The translations under genes were made by a program, and so were the position numbers. This document shows positions 50,131 through 57,401 of a stretch of DNA of 64,000 nt, piece after piece. Within the stretch, counting starts at the first letter, position 1; every line of letters begins with the position of its first letter. The stretch is from Escherichia phage RB32. The stretch lies in the sequence record NC_008515.1; one strand, given 5' to 3'. The notes under the pieces were generated by a model. It saw nothing but the letters and a program-made list of their open reading frames with translations, ran no database searches and had not been told where the DNA came from.

Positions 50131-50850
50131 TTAGGATTCTTCTAAATGTCTTTTCTGAAAAGTTGATACCATACTACGATACGGTTCATTTGGATATCCG
50201 TGTTTTATAGCTTCCTTTGTAAATTTTCTCCATCCATATTTAGTTTCTTTCCAAAGCTCGAATAATTCATCTTCATACTGCCATATAGTTAAATGAGAAC
50301 GCTTTGCAGCTTTAATTCCATTAATATGCTTTTCTTTTACTGCAGGATTGTTTAGTTTCTTTTTAATAATATTACTAACTTTTCTAACAAAAACTGGGTC
50401 CTTATATCGTTGCGAAGTTTTTATTGAAGTGTTTAATTTAGCTTCCGGCGTGGATGTGACCTCTTTCATCTTTTTCTTCATATGCTGTATATGATTAGGA
50501 TTTTTCCATAAATTTATAGAATGCTTTTTGCATTTTATCCTAGTTTCATCTGCAACCTTTCCTCCTTCACCCCCGTATGACAGGTTAACACAGTTTTTTC
50601 CATATTTCAATTTACCTGCCATGATATATAATATTTCAGCTTGTACCATTTTATCATAATTATCAAAAACTTCTAAAACCGTTTTTGATAATATGTGGTC
50701 ATTTGACACTTTTACACGTTCTATATAATTTCCACTACCAACATACGAATCATTGATGTTATTAGTTATATGTCGACCATAATAGTATTTCTTAATACCT
50801 GTCTTTAAATTTAATATTTCAGTTTTATAGATAGTAAAATATTTTTTCAT
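50131..50850 (-). CDS. GIY-YIG family homing endonuclease (Seg-like)
   Basis: 239-aa ORF; N-terminal FTIYKTEILNLKTGIKKYYYGRH...YVGSG resembles the GIY-(x10-15)-YIG module; basic C-terminal half. Confidence 0.55.
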   Translation of the reverse strand: MKKYFTIYKTEILNLKTGIKKYYYGRHITNNINDSYVGSGNYIERVKVSNDHILSKTVLEVFDNYDKMVQAEILYIMAGKLKYGKNCVNLSYGGEGGKVADETRIKCKKHSINLWKNPNHIQHMKKKMKEVTSTPEAKLNTSIKTSQRYKDPVFVRKVSNIIKKKLNNPAVKEKHINGIKAAKRSHLTIWQYEDELFELWKETKYGWRKFTKEAIKHGYPNEPYRSMVSTFQKRHLEES

Positions 50851-51827
50851 TTTAATAATACCGTTTCAGCGATTTCTTCCCAACCGTTTTTGTCGGTCAT
50901 AATAAAGTCAGCAAGATAAAGAGCAGTACGCAGTGAAACATTGCGTAAACGATTAACATTGACTTTCATCCATGATAATGCTTTATAAGTTTCTTCATCA
51001 GAAAGACCGCGCTTTTGCATCATGTCGGTTGAAAGAATAACATCTTCAACCCTGACCATAATTTCTTCATTAGTGTGAACACCCAAATCCAAATAAACCG
51101 AGCGGGACACTAATGCTTGTAAATGTGGAGCAAGTTTAGTACCACGGTCTAATTCGCGGTCAATGTCAACGTTTGTGATAAAAACAATCGTTCCTTTAAA
51201 TTCAAACTCACGCTCAATGCCTTTTTCTTCTAAGTAAGAAGATGCAGTGCTCCAGCAGACTTTACGGGTCTCTCCAGTGTCCAGAGCAGCTTTCAGAAGA
51301 TTAAGAATGTCCATATCAGAGAAAACATCCACATCATCAATCAAAAGGACAGAATTCTCTTCACGATTATTCCAAAGCTGCTCATAAAGACCAATACCAG
51401 AGATTTTACCATTAATGCTTTTATATTCAATGTATCCAATATCATTTGCTTTATTTAAAGCTTTATCTAAAGAATATGTTTTACCTATACCTGCCGCACC
51501 AGAGATAATTAATGAACGAATGTTTCCGTTAATAATACCATTCGTCATCATTCCCATAACATTAAATCTTTTATTAATGCGGGTTTTCATATCTTCATAT
51601 GATTCTTTAACTTCTTCAACTTTTACACCATCATATGAAATGTCTGATTTGTAAACCCAAACACCGCGACGCTTACCGTCAATTTCAACAAAAACTTTAC
51701 CATCTCCTTGTGCATCTACCGGAGCATTATCTGGGAACCATTCACCTAAGAGCTCAAAAGTTCCAGAGATTTCTTTACCAAAGTAGATACCCTTATTGAT
51801 AGTTACAGTTTTCATTTTATTCTCCAA
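50847..51827 (-). CDS. P-loop ATPase (AAA-like)
   Basis: 326-aa ORF; Walker A GAAGIGKT, Walker B LLIDDVD; ATGA overlap with the GIY-YIG gene. Confidence 0.65.
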   Translation of the reverse strand: MENKMKTVTINKGIYFGKEISGTFELLGEWFPDNAPVDAQGDGKVFVEIDGKRRGVWVYKSDISYDGVKVEEVKESYEDMKTRINKRFNVMGMMTNGIINGNIRSLIISGAAGIGKTYSLDKALNKANDIGYIEYKSINGKISGIGLYEQLWNNREENSVLLIDDVDVFSDMDILNLLKAALDTGETRKVCWSTASSYLEEKGIEREFEFKGTIVFITNVDIDRELDRGTKLAPHLQALVSRSVYLDLGVHTNEEIMVRVEDVILSTDMMQKRGLSDEETYKALSWMKVNVNRLRNVSLRTALYLADFIMTDKNGWEEIAETVLLK

Positions 51828-51849
51828 ATCCGTATCAGTTGATAGTTGT

Positions 51850-51879
51850 ATAGTACCATAAAGCTTTATGCTTGTAAAC
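51850..51879 (-). promoter_or_regulatory. early promoter (-35 TTTACA, -10 TACTAT) with conserved leader
   Basis: minus strand GTTTACAagcataaagctttatggTACTATacaactatcaactgatacggatttggagaataaaATG. Confidence 0.45.
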
Positions 51880-51909
51880 CGTTTTGTGAAAAATTTTTGA
51901 AATAAAAAA

Positions 51910-51927
51910 GGGAGCCCGAAGGCTCCC
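51910..51927 (-). terminator. intrinsic terminator (GGGAGCC-UUCG-GGCUCCC followed by U-run)
   Basis: gggagcccgaaggctccc after the stop of the 337-aa gene; T-run follows on transcript. Confidence 0.5.
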
Positions 51928-51929
51928 TA

Positions 51930-52943
51930 TCATTTATAATAACTTCGGTGGTTTTCAAGATAGACCTTCTCAAGGAAGTCATCCCAGAAACCCATGTCTA
52001 CTTTTTGCTGCATACCGTTCTTAGAAGCTTCAGTAGATGCTGCTTCTACTTGATCGACCACATCTTCCAAAAACTCTTGAACTGTTTTAAATGGATGTTT
52101 ACCCAACTTCACGTCGAGAATAAATGGAGCATCTTGGAGTGGATAAACCAAGTCACCAGTTTTGTAAATTTCCAATAGTTGAAGTCCACCACGACAAGCA
52201 TGACTCAGAGCTTTCCAGTCAATGCCTTCATTGGCTTCGGCCTTACGAGCGCGTTCACCATATTCAGCATCTAATTTGTTCAGTGACTGCTTAAGCTCAA
52301 TAAGAGAAAGAGTTGTCTGATATTTACGACCCAACACAGTGTAGAACGTTTGTGGGCCTGTTTTCTCATGATTATGGAACACCCATTCACAGAATTCGTT
52401 TTCTGGAAGACGATGCTTAATATCTTCAACTTTAGTACGACGCTGCTTAATGGAACCGTCTTCTTGGTAATCAACCCATTGCTCAGGGATTTGATTAACT
52501 ACTTTCAATACATCGCGTAATGCAGCCAAACGAGAACCCTTGACGCCATATTTAGAAGCTTGCTTACGGACATATCCTAAATAGGATTTCATGTTAGTCG
52601 TATAAAAACGAGAACGGTTGTCTTGAATAAACTTCCACACATCAGGCAAATCAGATTTAACCACTAATTCAGGTGGAGTGTGAAGCATATCCAATGCTAC
52701 AGTTTCACCATCTGCTGCTAATTTAAAGAAATATTTAAGACTATATAGTTCATGGTCAATATCATCTTTAGTGTTTTTAGATGATGTGTTGTTGGTATTT
52801 TTACTCATATGCTCTTTAACATTTCCGATAAGAATATCGCGAGCAGGAGGAACAAAAATTTCTTTAAAATCTACATCAGATTCTGGGGTAGAAGTTCCAT
52901 AAAGATGACTACCAAAATAGCTTTTCATTACTGTTTTCATCAT
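51930..52943 (-). CDS. nucleotidyltransferase-fold protein (minimal NTase signature GS-x3-G-x5-SDVD)
   Basis: 337-aa ORF; N-terminus MMKTVMKSYFGSHLYGTSTPESDVDF fits the Pol-beta-superfamily NTase motif. Confidence 0.55.
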   Translation of the reverse strand: MMKTVMKSYFGSHLYGTSTPESDVDFKEIFVPPARDILIGNVKEHMSKNTNNTSSKNTKDDIDHELYSLKYFFKLAADGETVALDMLHTPPELVVKSDLPDVWKFIQDNRSRFYTTNMKSYLGYVRKQASKYGVKGSRLAALRDVLKVVNQIPEQWVDYQEDGSIKQRRTKVEDIKHRLPENEFCEWVFHNHEKTGPQTFYTVLGRKYQTTLSLIELKQSLNKLDAEYGERARKAEANEGIDWKALSHACRGGLQLLEIYKTGDLVYPLQDAPFILDVKLGKHPFKTVQEFLEDVVDQVEAASTEASKNGMQQKVDMGFWDDFLEKVYLENHRSYYK

Positions 52944-53401
52944 TCAGCCTTATATTCAATAACAGGACATACTTTAGCTTTACGAGCTTTTAAAAATTCA
53001 ACGATAATCGATTTCTTGGGTTGAATAGGAGGTAAACCTTTATACGCCCTATCAATATTTTCTACGTGTAAAGCATAATCCTTTTTCCATTTATAATCTT
53101 TATATTTTTCACGCAAATGTACAGGAATAACAAATGAACCAATAATAAGTAAAACAACCAAAAGCGCAAGTATAAATGCTGATGGAAGCAAAGTCCATAA
53201 ACTACCAAAAATAAGCCAACGCTGTAGGCTTTCTGCACAAATAATTGTTAGCCCTACGAGTATAGCACATCCAAAAATAGAAACGAAAAATGTAGGAATG
53301 GCAATAGACCAAAAATATGCGCATAGTGTCTTAGGTCGTTGCCATTCATCGTTAAACATTTTGAATAATTTATAGTGCCAAGAGTTTTCATTAATAATCA
53401 T
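52940..53401 (-). CDS. membrane protein (three predicted TM helices)
   Basis: 153-aa ORF; ATGA overlap with the NTase gene. Confidence 0.55.
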   Translation of the reverse strand: MIINENSWHYKLFKMFNDEWQRPKTLCAYFWSIAIPTFFVSIFGCAILVGLTIICAESLQRWLIFGSLWTLLPSAFILALLVVLLIIGSFVIPVHLREKYKDYKWKKDYALHVENIDRAYKGLPPIQPKKSIIVEFLKARKAKVCPVIEYKAE

Positions 53402-53403
53402 AA

Positions 53404-53925
53404 TTATCCTTTCATTGAAGGCGTAACGGTTGTTAAATACTTAATCATAGCTTCAGCTTCTGATTTTGATAATGAAATTTCTCCATTGTTTTGACGAATA
53501 GAAATAAAATCCGGATGACGGTCACCACCAGCTTTTAAAACACACATATAAGTATCAGTTTCATCTTCAATATTTGAAATGATTGAAGCAGTTCCACATG
53601 AATGCGGTTTTTGATAAATCAATACAGCTTTTCTTCCGCCATTTGACTGTTCATAGGCTTTTAATACATCAAACAAATCAGTTCTTTTATCAATAGCTAA
53701 AATGTTATTTTCATCTTCAATGTTAAATCCTTCGGATACTTCATAAAGCGTTACCCATAAATCACCGATGTCAATAACAGCATTTACTTTTCCACGGCTT
53801 TCAAGAATATGACAAATTTTCTTGATTTCGTCATAGCTCATTTTAATAATATCATCTCCTTGACTAAGAAAGATGTCATTTTTAAATTCAACGCGAATTA
53901 AACCGCTTCCACTTGAAATAAACAT
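53404..53925 (-). CDS. hypothetical protein, paralogue of the next ORF
   Basis: 173-aa ORF ending ...GEISLSKSEAEAMIKYLTTVTPSMKG. Confidence 0.55.
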   Translation of the reverse strand: MFISSGSGLIRVEFKNDIFLSQGDDIIKMSYDEIKKICHILESRGKVNAVIDIGDLWVTLYEVSEGFNIEDENNILAIDKRTDLFDVLKAYEQSNGGRKAVLIYQKPHSCGTASIISNIEDETDTYMCVLKAGGDRHPDFISIRQNNGEISLSKSEAEAMIKYLTTVTPSMKG

Positions 53926-53931
53926 ATTTCC

Positions 53932-54465
53932 TCACTTTGAAATCATAGTTGGAATGACAGAATCAAGATAAGTCTTTAGTGCAATAGCTTCGTCTTTGTT
54001 TAATGTAATGATATGTGATCGAAAATCGTCAATTTGACGAATAGATACTACATCTCCCTCTTCATAGCATTTTGAAACATTTAAAATAGTTTCATCATTC
54101 TGATTACAGGAGTTAGTAATAATAGCATTACAATTTTTGAGCCATTTTAAACTATGTTTTCTTTCATTAGAATAATAAAAATATTTAATCTTAGCTATAA
54201 AACTATCCCAATGGATAACTGATAAACACATTGACTCACTTTTAATATTAAATCCTGGGCATGAAGAATAAAAATGAATTTTGTGCTCATCATTGATGCT
54301 TACTATTTTATCAGTATAAGGATATTCAATTTGGGTTAAATGAATGATTTCACTAGGCGTAAAATATAGCATATCGTCTTCTTGCGTCAAACGATACATG
54401 TTATTTACTTTTTCTATAGCCAATTCACCAAAAAGCGGACTAACTTCTAATACTAATCGTTTCAT
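53932..54465 (-). CDS. hypothetical protein, paralogue of the previous ORF
   Basis: ORF track 53932..54489 (GTG); ATG start MKRLVLEV; ends ...IITLNKDEAIALKTYLDSVIPTMISK. Confidence 0.5.
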   Translation of the reverse strand: MKRLVLEVSPLFGELAIEKVNNMYRLTQEDDMLYFTPSEIIHLTQIEYPYTDKIVSINDEHKIHFYSSCPGFNIKSESMCLSVIHWDSFIAKIKYFYYSNERKHSLKWLKNCNAIITNSCNQNDETILNVSKCYEEGDVVSIRQIDDFRSHIITLNKDEAIALKTYLDSVIPTMISK

Positions 54466-54624
54466 ATTGATTCTCTTCGACTCACTCACAATTACATACT
54501 CCTTTGAATAATATCAATAATGTTGTTCACCAGATTATAAGTAAACATTGGGTAATTATATTGAATCATTACATACACAACAAACAAAACTTTCATTCTC
54601 TTCTCCTTGACAGTTGACAAGATT

Positions 54625-54654
54625 ACTATACCATAACCTTGCCAACTTGTAAAC
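54625..54654 (-). promoter_or_regulatory. early promoter (-35 GTTTACA, -10 TATAGT)
   Basis: minus strand GTTTACAagttggcaaggttatggTATAGT. Confidence 0.45.
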
Positions 54655-54656
54655 CG

Positions 54657-54830
54657 TTAAATGTTGTTTTCAATAAAATTTTGAAGCTTTGTGTGAGCAT
54701 CAACCATGATTTTCATTTCTTCTTTGGCGAAAGCTGTACCTCTTTCCCGAGCAGAATACTCATAGTCAGAAACTGCATTAGCATATTCTTCAATTAGCTT
54801 CATTAAAAACATCTGCTTTTCAGTTTTCAT
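54657..54830 (-). CDS. small hypothetical protein, below ORF-track cutoff
   Basis: 57-codon ORF read by hand (MKTEKQMFLMKLIEEYANAVSDYEYSAREGTAFAKEEMKIMVDAHTKLQNFIENNI). Confidence 0.3.
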   Translation of the reverse strand: MKTEKQMFLMKLIEEYANAVSDYEYSARERGTAFAKEEMKIMVDAHTKLQNFIENNI

Positions 54831-55014
54831 TATTCCACCTAATCATTTCAAGATATTGAACTAACTTAGCTTTAGATTTATCCAAATCCCTTTTAGCTGA
54901 TTCTATACCATCGTATGAATATCCTTCACAATGCTCAACTGCTAATTGGTATGAATCTATTTCAATATCATGCGCTAATTTAATGATTTTTTCAAACTGT
55001 TCGCGTGTTAGCAT
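54820..55014 (-). CDS. small helical protein
   Basis: 64-aa ORF MLTREQFEKIIKLAHDIEID... Confidence 0.5.
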   Translation of the reverse strand: MLTREQFEKIIKLAHDIEIDSYQLAVEHCEGYSYDGIESAKRDLDKSKAKLVQYLEMIRWNNEN

Positions 55015-55016
55015 AA

Positions 55017-55220
55017 TTAAACTCTCGTATTATGATCGATAATTTCATCAAGAAACATATCTAACGCTTCTAAAGCATTATCAACTTTAGCTTCAAGTTC
55101 ATCAATGCCTTTATTTGCAATGCCTGACGAAAACCAAGCAAAGTCACTAAGTTCCTCGTCTGCTTTACGAATTAAAGCTACCAATTCCTTAATTTTATCC
55201 GCTTGTTCGATACTAATCAT
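55017..55220 (-). CDS. small helical protein
   Basis: ORF track 55017..55256; internal Met [24 protein letters not shown]. Confidence 0.45.
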   Translation of the reverse strand: MISIEQADKIKELVALIRKADEELSDFAWFSSGIANKGIDELEAKVDNALEALDMFLDEIIDHNTRV

Positions 55221-55408
55221 TATTCCACCACATATGAAAGAGAGAATATTGCACACGCCATGTGAGTTGCAACTTCATCACACATATTATAACGTTTCTT
55301 AAGAAGTTCTACAAGTTCTTCACTAGTAACTTCATCCATGTCGACGAAAAAATCACCATTAATGATGACGTAGATATTTCCTTCTTGATTAAGTGCTTCA
55401 ATTTTCAT
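55220..55408 (-). CDS. small acidic protein
   Basis: ORF track 55220..55453 runs through the promoter; start at [10 protein letters not shown] with GAGGAG RBS. Confidence 0.5.
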
Positions 55409-55436
55409 GATGTTCTCCTCTTTATCCGATGGTTGT

Positions 55437-55466
55437 ATAGTATCACAGCTCAAATGGAAAGTAAAC
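55437..55466 (-). promoter_or_regulatory. early promoter (-35 GTTTAC, -10 TACTAT)
   Basis: minus strand GTTTACtttccatttgagctgtgaTACTAT. Confidence 0.45.
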
Positions 55467-55481
55467 CGTTTAAATGAAAAA

Positions 55482-55499
55482 AGTCTCCCGAAGGAGACT
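55482..55499 (-). terminator. intrinsic terminator hairpin after the rI.-1 stop
   Basis: agtctcccgaaggagact followed by T-run on transcript. Confidence 0.45.
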
Positions 55500-55503
55500 A
55501 ACG

Positions 55504-55890
55504 TTATTCGAGGGAAAGAAGATATTTACTCTGGTAAAACATTCCAGTAATATCATCTATCGTGCTTTGAATGGCTGGAGGCATTTCTTTGTAAATGCTG
55601 TTAGATTGGTCTAGTATGCGATCAATCATTTTAATTGTGTCGGTAGGAAGTTTACTGGCATCTGGAATTGAAGGTGTGTATTTTCTACCAGAATACCCCA
55701 AATATTGCTCACCAAATTTATCAATCAAATCTGGCAACTCGGAGAAAATAAAATCGTATGCTTTGTGTCTAGCATAATTTTTAGTTTCAAAATGTGCAGA
55801 ATGAAAATAAGCTTGTGCAGCCATTAATAAACCTAAGTATTCATCTGCCTTTGAAGGTTTTCCACTTTGTGAAAAGTCGCTGAATTTCAT
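55504..55890 (-). CDS. hypothetical protein (rI.-1 position)
   Basis: 128-aa ORF immediately downstream of rI with ATGA overlap. Confidence 0.55.
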
Positions 55891-56180
55891 TCAGTCTCCA
55901 ATTTAATGTTCATAATTCTAGCGTATGATTGTGCCATCTCCGCGCCTCGCTCTATACATTCAAAATCAGAAGAGCACGGGTCATTTTTATAGGTCGTTCT
56001 CATAAAACTATAGAATTGTTCAGACGATTCTACGCTTTTATTTTCAAAAAGTGTATAAACGTGCCTAATACCAGATTCCATAAATTTATCAAAATGAGGA
56101 TCGACATTCGCTTCAATCGATGGAGATAAAACAAATGACAATCCTAGCATGGCAAAAAGTGCCGTTGCTTTTAAGGCCAT
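55887..56180 (-). CDS. rI: lysis-inhibition regulator RI (signal-anchor periplasmic protein)
   Basis: 97-aa ORF MALKATALFAMLGLSFVLSPSIEANVDPHFDKF... matches T4 RI as recalled. Confidence 0.85.
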   Translation of the reverse strand: MALKATALFAMLGLSFVLSPSIEANVDPHFDKFMESGIRHVYTLFENKSVESSEQFYSFMRTTYKNDPCSSDFECIERGAEMAQSYARIMNIKLETE

Positions 56181-56192
56181 AAAGGCCTCCTA

Positions 56193-56405
56193 TCATTTTT
56201 GTCCTGTATTTACTTTATGCCGGTGCACGGCCTTAACTTTATCAAGGTATTTTTCAAAATTTCGCAATCTAGTATAGTCTGCCGGAGATTGGTTGAGCGA
56301 TACTTCTCGACGCAAAGCTGAAATGATATTTCCAACTTCCCTACGAATTTCATCTAATTGAAGCACAGTAAGATTGCGAAGTTGCTTTTCAGTTAATTGT
56401 AGCAT
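56193..56405 (-). CDS. hypothetical protein (rI.1 position)
   Basis: 70-aa ORF. Confidence 0.5.
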
Positions 56406-56447
56406 ATATACCCCTTTAGTTAGATAAACCTATTTATAACTTTTGCA

Positions 56448-57029
56448 CTAACCGAGTTTTTTAGTTAATTCATTCCAATGTTTTCTACACAAAGAAACAT
56501 AAATTTCATCACCAATACAGATTTGATTACCTTCTTTAACGGGTGTTCCATCTTCCATTAATCGAGCTGTCATAATAGCTTTTTTACCACAATGACAAAC
56601 TGCCTTTAGTTCAATAAGTTTATCTGCAATCGCCAAAAGTTCTTTAGAACCTTCAAACAATTTTCCAGCGAAATCAGTCCTTAATCCATAAGCCATAACA
56701 GGAACATTATATGTATCAACAATTCGGCTCAATTGATGCACCTGTTCAGTTTTTAAAAACTGGGCTTCATCTACAAATACGCAATGAATATCTTTTTGTG
56801 CTTCAGCCCATTTATAGAACTCGAAAATATCCATATCATCTGTAATAATATTCGCTTCCTGCTTAATTCCAATGCGAGAAACGACTTCACAGACAGAATC
56901 ACGAGTATCAATAGCAGGCTTAAGAACTAATACACTCATTCCACGTTCTTTATAATTGTGTGCAGCAGTCAAAAGAGAAGCAGATTTTCCAGCATTCATT
57001 GCTGCATAAGTAAAAATTAAACTCGCCAT
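56448..57029 (-). CDS. tk: thymidine kinase
   Basis: 193-aa ORF, P-loop NAGKSASLL, zinc site CHCGKKA; length equals T4 Tk. Confidence 0.9.
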   Translation of the reverse strand: MASLIFTYAAMNAGKSASLLTAAHNYKERGMSVLVLKPAIDTRDSVCEVVSRIGIKQEANIITDDMDIFEFYKWAEAQKDIHCVFVDEAQFLKTEQVHQLSRIVDTYNVPVMAYGLRTDFAGKLFEGSKELLAIADKLIELKAVCHCGKKAIMTARLMEDGTPVKEGNQICIGDEIYVSLCRKHWNELTKKLG

Positions 57030-57030
57030 C

Positions 57031-57219
57031 TTAGTCCTTAGTTAAATTTTCTAAATATGTTTCTAAATCATTTTCAGCTTTATCGATAGATTTTACTAAT
57101 TCATAATATGTTTCGGCATCTCCATAATCAGAAGATAATTCAAAAGACAAATCCTTTTCTAAACTAATAATTTCACCAACTAAAAATAATATTTCGTTCT
57201 TTTGTTCGCGAGTAATCAT
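57031..57219 (-). CDS. small acidic helical protein (tk.1 position)
   Basis: 62-aa ORF MITREQKNEILFLVGEIISLEKDL... Confidence 0.5.
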   Translation of the reverse strand: MITREQKNEILFLVGEIISLEKDLSFELSSDYGDAETYYELVKSIDKAENDLETYLENLTKD

Positions 57220-57401
57220 AAGGAATTTATATAATTAATAAGTTCTTGTTCTTTATTATCGAATTCTTTAGAAAGTTCTTCGTACTCGTTTGCACTAAAA
57301 GGACCGCATTCATTACAAACTTTTTCCAATTCACTATTTTTATCCATAACTTCATGGATAAGAGAAAAGAGTTTGTCTTTTTGTTCTTTGCTTAGGCTCA
57401 T
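57216..57401 (-). CDS. small acidic helical protein (tk.2 position), paralogue of tk.1-like ORF
   Basis: 61-aa ORF MSLSKEQKDKLFSLIHEVMDKNSEL... Confidence 0.5.
   Translation of the reverse strand: MSLSKEQKDKLFSLIHEVMDKNSELEKVCNECGPFSANEYEELSKEFDNKEQELINYINSL

Follow-up and report, generated by a model that had tools for sequence, protein, structure and literature searches.

Two adjacent genes at positions 53404 to 54465 of a 64,000-nucleotide stretch of the Escherichia phage RB32 genome (NC_008515.1) are the subject of this analysis. One encodes the orthologue of phage T4 MobD.1 and the other a protein of the RB32ORF097c type (ORF097c below). All coordinates are those of the whole stretch, which we call the window; the RB33 record KM607001.1 (species Tequatrovirus RB32) is 100% identical, with record coordinate equal to window coordinate plus 119. 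The genes of the region all lie on the minus strand. A first-pass annotation, made from the letters alone, had reported two open reading frames (ORFs) of 173 and 177 amino acids, and both are indeed present:

53404 to 53925, minus strand: RB32ORF097c-type paralogue (RB33_099), an ORF of 173 amino acids
53932 to 54465, minus strand: MobD.1 orthologue (RB33_100; T4 Y05I family), 177 amino acids from ATG, annotated in RB33 as 'tk.-9; mobD.1'

An alternative mobD.1 start, the GTG at 54489, lies upstream and would yield 185 amino acids; the resulting N-terminal extension is not kept in orthologues, and the conserved core starts with KRLVLEV. Only 6 nucleotides separate mobD.1 from ORF097c, and the mobD.1 stop codon falls within the Shine-Dalgarno sequence of ORF097c (TGAGGAAATATG). 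The 177-residue protein shares 90% amino-acid identity with T4 MobD.1 (Y05I_BPT4; PF24449 and PF24448; PHROG 1502), whose gene is likewise placed between mobD.2 and the nrdC.11 side and whose two-domain architecture is common to the 173-residue protein. The base-composition profile displayed no anomaly pointing to a recent foreign origin, and an Rfam scan of 51000-56500 gave one sub-threshold chance match and nothing else.

The two proteins were then compared along their full length. BLASTP aligned residues 3-171 of ORF097c with residues 8-174 of MobD.1 (E=6e-10), and 29% of the 176 aligned columns were identical. As the first-pass annotation had noticed, related C-terminal motifs are present in both proteins, and this tail is their best-conserved part. 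That the resemblance might be no more than such a short common tail or chance, with the ORFs otherwise unrelated, draws some support from an identity of merely 22% between the N-terminal halves. However, the N-halves alone were matched by BLASTP with E=6.6e-6, and removal of the last 27 residues still left E=5e-6 over 146 columns. Smith-Waterman alignment gave z=14 over the full length, z=7.5 with the N-halves alone and z=8.1 with the C-halves alone, and in none of the three cases did any of 1,000 shuffles equal the observed score. Both Pfam domains were found in both proteins with E-values of 1e-22 to 1e-38, well above the gathering thresholds: PF24449 (T4_y05I_N; threshold 24.9 bits) scored 115.9 bits in ORF097c and 132.2 bits in MobD.1, and PF24448 (T4_y05I_C; threshold 27 bits) 81.8 and 78.0 bits, respectively. 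All 19 aligned relatives also match PF24448, and both proteins match PHROG 1502. The predicted folds (below) are alike as well. A tail-only or chance similarity thus has next to no probability and is ruled out by the BLASTP, Pfam and shuffle results. From these comparisons we conclude that MobD.1 and ORF097c are true full-length paralogues of the T4 MobD.1 (UniProt Y05I) family. The annotated divergence of the N-terminal portions stands as a matter of degree (22% identity against 34% in the C-terminal portions), but these portions are still homologous.

Paralogy of the pair is already on record and our confirmation of it changes nothing: the RB51 and T6 records name the 173-residue gene RB32ORF097c with the note 'similar to mobD.1', and Pfam implies the same. 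What the analysis adds is a predicted Pur-alpha-like three-repeat fold, an apparent operon link to an RlaP nucleotidyltransferase and a reconstructed history of the locus. Pfam describes both domains as 'y05I-like putative transcription factor', which is a predicted function. In literature searches by gene name (mobD.1, y05I and the neighbours) and by Pfam name we found no functional study or phenotype.

Structures were predicted with AlphaFold2 from an alignment of 19 sequences for ORF097c and of 10 sequences for MobD.1. The ORF097c model had a mean predicted local distance difference test score (pLDDT) of 82, with the five models spanning 77-82. It contains three beta-beta-beta-beta-alpha units (residues 2-43, 49-94 and 101-171), the last consisting of strands in residues 101-152 followed by a helix at 154-171. 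The MobD.1 model is confident in the N-domain alone and has its elements in the same order. We delimited the domains as follows:

54166 to 54456, minus strand: MobD.1 N-terminal domain, residues 4-100, repeats I and II, a predicted intramolecular 'type I' PC4-like domain
53944 to 54153, minus strand: MobD.1 C-terminal domain, residues 105-174, from the Pfam stretch and conserved columns, with low model confidence
53641 to 53922, minus strand: ORF097c N-terminal domain, residues 2-95, repeats I and II
53413 to 53622, minus strand: ORF097c C-terminal domain, residues 102-171, repeat III, from the Pfam stretch, the model and hhalign

In these models three PUR-type beta-beta-beta-beta-alpha repeats can be recognized, repeats I and II being joined in one domain that likewise has the appearance of a Whirly-type two-repeat fold. 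Profile comparison by hhalign matched repeat I to repeat III in register over beta3-beta4-helix (probability 81%, E 1.2e-5), evidence that these two repeats are homologous at the sequence level, while repeat II gave no sequence signal against repeats I and III. Repeat III bears the conserved C-terminal helix K-x-EA-x-AL-xx-YL-xx-VIPTM spotted in the first-pass annotation, and conservation in the family is strongest in this helix and the tail. Structural neighbours of the models were MRP1, MRP2, 2nvn and 2it9 (proteins of unknown function), SsgA, Whirly p24 and StWhy2. We therefore predict for MobD.1 and ORF097c the three-repeat architecture of Pur-alpha, with repeats I and II forming one PUR/Whirly/PC4-like domain and repeat III a separate half-domain.

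The resemblance to Pur-alpha is one of fold and not of family membership. Eukaryotic Pur-alpha (PURA; 3k44, 5fgo, 8chw) has a layout like that modelled here, a two-repeat type I domain plus an extra repeat that needs a partner. No sequence similarity to the phage proteins is detectable, and common ancestry is not established. In contrast to Pur-alpha, the phage proteins are acidic, comprise only ~175 amino acids and lack Gly-rich or Q-rich extensions. Pur-alpha combines a type I with a type II domain and dimerises via repeat III; it has also been proposed to form a heterodimer with Pur-beta (PMC7549692). A 2020 review termed the three-repeat architecture unique to Pur-alpha. Two-repeat proteins offer a second comparison. 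The MRP and Whirly proteins are basic and tetrameric and have no third repeat. Trypanosome MRP1/MRP2 and plant Whirly (2gia, 1l3a, 3n1h) have no sequence similarity to the phage proteins. The single-repeat PC4-like proteins (Borrelia Bpur 3n8b, PC4/Sub1, the phage T5 PC4 homologue 4bg7 and YdbC) are documented binders of single-stranded DNA or RNA; the phage C-domain differs from them in its five predicted strands and its distinctive C-terminal VIPTM tail.

The genes surrounding the pair were next considered. Upstream and downstream of it, in the direction of transcription, lie:

54625 to 54653, minus strand: sigma-70 promoter-like site TTTACA-17-TATAGT with TG extension, upstream of mobD.2, the best score of the region (10/12)
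54492 to 54596, minus strand: mobD.2, the first small ORF of the unit, 34 amino acids (RB33 annotation), with no match in a Pfam scan
52940 to 53401, minus strand: RB32ORF096c (ORF096c), a membrane protein of 153 amino acids (PHROG 944 'membrane protein'), basic with an isoelectric point (pI) of 9.4
51930 to 52943, minus strand: NrdC.11, an RlaP-family Pol-beta nucleotidyltransferase (PF10127 RlaP, 44 bits; PHROG 388), the last gene of the unit
51909 to 51928, minus strand: intrinsic-terminator-like hairpin of 8 base pairs, 6 of them G-C, with a T run behind it, immediately past the nrdC.11 stop codon

ORF096c begins 2 nucleotides downstream of ORF097c and overlaps nrdC.11 by 4 nucleotides. 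From the promoter-like site through mobD.2, mobD.1, ORF097c, ORF096c and NrdC.11 to the terminator, this arrangement has the appearance of a single transcription unit. The site at 54625-54653 may be an early promoter, as suggested by its consensus match. A further terminator follows rI.-1 (55499-55482). The pair had been placed downstream of an ATPase, nucleotidyltransferase and membrane-protein cluster; by the direction of transcription it instead lies upstream of those genes. In T4-like phages the family is found at a conserved position, flanked by the mobD.2-mobD.5 small genes on one side and nrdC.11 on the other, and the order y05I gene, next ORF, RlaP gene is kept in Mosigvirus, Dhakavirus, Marfavirus and Kagamiyamavirus. 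Bacterial RlaP extends RNA 3' ends by one or two nucleoside monophosphates and favours damaged RNAs; Pseudomonas members have been characterised, and T4 NrdC.11 has been assigned to the RlaP family (PMC12776372, 2025 preprint).

Taking the fold predictions and the gene order together, we consider the best explanation as a whole to be that MobD.1 and ORF097c are dimeric PUR-like binders, possibly of RNA, which serve as an early accessory factor near NrdC.11. Our probability for this reading is roughly 45%. Repeat III would pair with a second repeat III to form the dimer, its conserved helix acting as the packing helix of the half-domain. Homodimers would have to suffice, because T4 and the other inspected genera have one copy, and a MobD.1/ORF097c heterodimer would be possible where both copies are present. 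The domain of repeats I and II would be the ligand-binding module and present its beta-sheet face, most likely to single-stranded RNA or DNA, as in Pur-alpha, MRP1/2, Whirly and PC4. RNA is the better guess for the ligand because the genes are apparently co-transcribed with that of an RlaP enzyme. The proteins might then be a dispensable early accessory factor that possibly feeds RNA substrates to the NrdC.11 RNA-repair enzyme, or regulates them. The C-domain itself is probably modular, as stand-alone C-domain proteins and a natural hybrid (both described below) suggest. The fold assignment may matter and, with the apparent co-transcription with an RlaP gene, offers a concrete hypothesis (RNA binding, dimerisation, RNA repair) for genes still labelled 'hypothetical' in the best-studied phage group.

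Several observations weigh against this explanation. The alignments are shallow (10 and 19 sequences), the predicted template modelling scores are 0.52-0.56, and the MobD.1 C-domain has a pLDDT of ~45. PurA was not matched by the two proteins in Pfam at E<=1 or by 19 family members at E<=0.1, and neither was a Pfam Whirly, MRP or PC4 profile. A profile search of PDB sequences returned no Pur-alpha chain at E<=10 and no meaningful match to a solved structure, the best being a designed nanopore (E 0.035); Foldseek against BFVD retrieved the family itself and unannotated phage proteins, nothing else. Among the structural neighbours, SsgA, the KhtT N-domain, 2nvn/2it9 and COMM domains are not known nucleic-acid binders. 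Both proteins are acidic, with pI values of 5.7 and 4.9 and net charges of -5 and -8. In contrast, Pur-alpha, MRP1/2 and Whirly bind nucleic acids through basic domains. Conservation in the N-domain is highest at acidic or polar residues (LTQEDD, NIExE), and not at the aromatic and basic ones expected on a nucleic-acid-binding sheet. The linkage to NrdC.11 is seen only in related T4-like phages and is weak evidence, because synteny is inherited among them. In addition, T4 retains MobD.1 and NrdC.11 without the membrane protein and the second copy.

The acidity of both proteins and of the conserved N-domain residues makes a protein-binding adaptor a serious rival. The same fold would then have a protein ligand: MobD.1 and ORF097c would act early, as small acidic inhibitors or adaptors whose C-terminal helix and IPTM tail dock on a partner, for instance the basic membrane protein encoded directly downstream, NrdC.11 or a host protein. 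The opposite charges of the pair and of ORF096c (pI 9.4) fit this proposal, as does the strong conservation of the helix and tail. In every inspected context a y05I_C-containing gene, even one without the N-domain, lies directly upstream of a next ORF. This next ORF carries a membrane-protein annotation in HX01, Marfa and the contigs with the hybrid gene, and no annotation in VR5 and EcS1. However, T4 has MobD.1 without the membrane protein, which hence is not an obligatory partner. We consider the adaptor possible, if on the unlikely side.

Returning to the PUR-like binders, a more specific version can be formulated in which MobD.1 and ORF097c of T-even phages form a miniature Pur-alpha-like heterodimer through their third repeats and act as an RNA adaptor or chaperone that brings damaged tRNA or mRNA 3' ends to NrdC.11. 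This is a long shot. If true, it would represent an uncharacterised branch of phage RNA repair against host anticodon nucleases, and the first non-eukaryotic protein to join type I and type II PC4-like domains.

To define the distribution of the family, a HMMER search with the family profile was made against 1.84 billion cluster representatives, and returned 24 matches at E<=0.001. The family thus appears very narrow and confined to T4-like phages. One of the 24, the 3120-residue P0045, was rejected as a false positive, being a helical-repeat protein in which a 'YLDSIIPTL'-like motif recurs. The phage collection has MobD.1-type genes in 725 records, with identities of >80% in Tequatrovirus, ~45% in Mosigvirus and ~30% in Dhakavirus and relatives. 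The ORF097c type (at least 80% identity) was found in ~430 phage records, all Tequatrovirus-like, with an amino-acid identity of 93-98% across them; the second copy is found only in Tequatroviruses. Mosigvirus HX01 and Dhakavirus VR5 have a single MobD.1, followed by a small ORF (the annotated membrane protein in HX01), NrdC.11 and NrdC.10. Proteins of 70-87 amino acids consisting of the C-domain only are present in other T4-like phages, for example Marfa and EcS1, and were also found by tblastn in phages of Yersinia and Klebsiella. The C-domain-only y05I protein of Marfa and EcS1 directly follows a 'Phage_tudor' protein, which stands in place of the N-domain. The 173-residue proteins that adjoin nrdC.11 in these two phages were tried as hidden paralogues and discarded as unrelated (hhalign probability 0.1%).

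We then asked how old the pair is. RB33 MobD.1 shares 82-90% amino-acid identity with MobD.1 of T4, T6 and ZCEC14, and 32-46% with MobD.1 orthologues of different genera. Members of the ORF097c clade share 25-31% identity with every MobD.1, and the two RB33 copies are 28% identical to each other. Because the paralogues are less alike than MobD.1 orthologues across genera, their divergence is old, and the second copy goes back to an early duplication, or was acquired in divergent form long ago, and is no recent tandem duplicate. A neighbour-joining tree placed ORF097c outside all MobD.1 orthologues; with a bootstrap of 55% at the key node this placement is weakly supported and suggestive.

Pairwise ratios of nonsynonymous to synonymous substitution rates (dN/dS) among RB33, RB51, T6, ZCEC14, W143 and T4 were 0.09-0.44 for MobD.1 and 0.10-0.25 for ORF097c, alongside 0.03-0.31 for the membrane protein ORF096c and 0.02-0.15 for NrdC.11. 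These values indicate that both copies are kept by purifying selection, and an arms-race pattern was not seen. They bear on the proposal of the first-pass annotation that tandem divergent duplicates in an accessory region reflect diversification of specificity, according to which the proteins would be counter-defence or host-takeover factors whose copies were diversified toward different host targets. The accessory character of the region was borne out. The nrdC.11-mobD.3 block is among the fragments lost from a viable genome-reduced T4 (PMC9825161), so that the region is dispensable in the laboratory, and it sits behind an early-type promoter-like site. Copy number varies: the second copy is lost in T4, both are frameshifted in T2, and they are fused in some metagenomic phages. 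MobD.1 also evolves somewhat faster than ORF097c. The diversification itself is not supported by the selection and distribution data. Positive or diversifying selection was not seen, all pairwise dN/dS values being <0.45; ORF097c is almost invariant in its ~430 records; and the copies diverged long ago, not recently. Neither protein matched NCBIfam, PADLOC gave a single weak match (14.8 bits) and no usable anti-defence or defence family, and the searched literature holds no phenotype for these genes. Counter-defence is therefore an unlikely function in our estimation.

Comparison with T4 then allowed the history of the locus to be reconstructed. Homology between T4 and RB33 ends at window position 52944 (the nrdC.11 start) and restarts at 53907, and T4 therefore keeps the first 19 nucleotides of ORF097c. 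In place of window 52945-53906, which comprises the membrane protein gene ORF096c and ORF097c minus those 19 nucleotides, T4 carries the mobD HNH homing-endonuclease cassette (T4 genome 56450-57257; L003). The mobD insertion site has been given as 'nrdC.11/mobD.1' (PMC2988022). T4-type mobD (at least 95% identity) was found in 47 phage records versus ~430 with the two-paralogue arrangement, making two copies the majority state. The one-copy state of T4 is derived.

In T2 (LC348380.1; L004 3440-4600, equivalent to window 53404-54489) both paralogues are frameshifted by small deletions in short repeats, of 2 and 1 nucleotides in mobD.1 and of 1 and 2 nucleotides in ORF097c. The deletions sum to 3 nucleotides per gene, and the frame is therefore restored downstream. 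Several T2 records displayed equal match length and identity across the paralogue region.

A third variant is a natural hybrid, P0021 (179 amino acids), in which the N-part of MobD.1 is joined to the C-part of ORF097c. It is a single gene in metagenomic T4-like contigs, with a Phage_tudor gene before it and a membrane protein and an RlaP gene after it. When the hybrid was compared with RB33 by blastn, its junction mapped exactly to a 9-nucleotide identity, GATGAAACT, at homologous positions in both genes:

L009:3001-3540, L010:3001-3540 and L011:1306-1845: hybrid gene P0021
54088 to 54096, minus strand: GATGAAACT in mobD.1, one arm of the hybrid junction (blastn and sequence reading)
53557 to 53565, minus strand: GATGAAACT in ORF097c, the other arm (blastn and sequence reading)

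The hybrid thus arose by in-register unequal recombination between the paralogues. Together, the natural variants (two copies, one copy, hybrid, the T4 replacement and the T2 frameshifts) provide a ready genetic series.

A number of minor observations concern these genes and their surroundings. RefSeq records of many T4-like phages (e.g. NC_031011, NC_027983 and NC_018855, and mobD.4 of T4, NC_000866) name MobD.1 homologues or mobD.4 'molybdopterin-guanine dinucleotide biosynthesis protein MobD', which looks like a propagated error in which phage mobD (for mobile endonuclease D) was mistaken for a bacterial Mob gene. ORF097c is named 'putative SSB protein' in one record, whose other product names look unreliable. 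Within mobD.1, at 54363-54390 on the minus strand, lies a second sigma-70 match, TTGACG-16-TATATT with TG (10/12), which may act as an internal promoter or have arisen by chance in AT-rich DNA.

Between nrdC.9 and nrdC.10, at window 50131-50850 on the minus strand, there is a seg-like putative homing endonuclease of 239 amino acids, RB32ORF093c; it overlaps nrdC.10 by 4 nucleotides, has no Pfam match at E<=1, and T4 is without a gene there.

The interval between mobD.2 and mobD.1 (window ~54466-54492) is an indel hot spot. T6 (L012:1846-2299), ZCEC14 (L013:1846-2299) and the hybrid contigs have two extra genes there that are not in RB33. Those of T6 are RB14ncORF103c and RB14ncORF102c, and the same-sized pair of the hybrid contigs consists of a DUF7438 protein and an 88-residue Phage_tudor protein (Pfam). 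Just upstream of the unit, mobD.2a, mobD.3 and mobD.4 (window 54657-55220) are three more tandem paralogues, of 57-67 amino acids and all Pfam DUF7438. Contig L009 carries another DUF7438 gene, upstream of tk, so that this family may also include the small ORFs at window 57031-57401.

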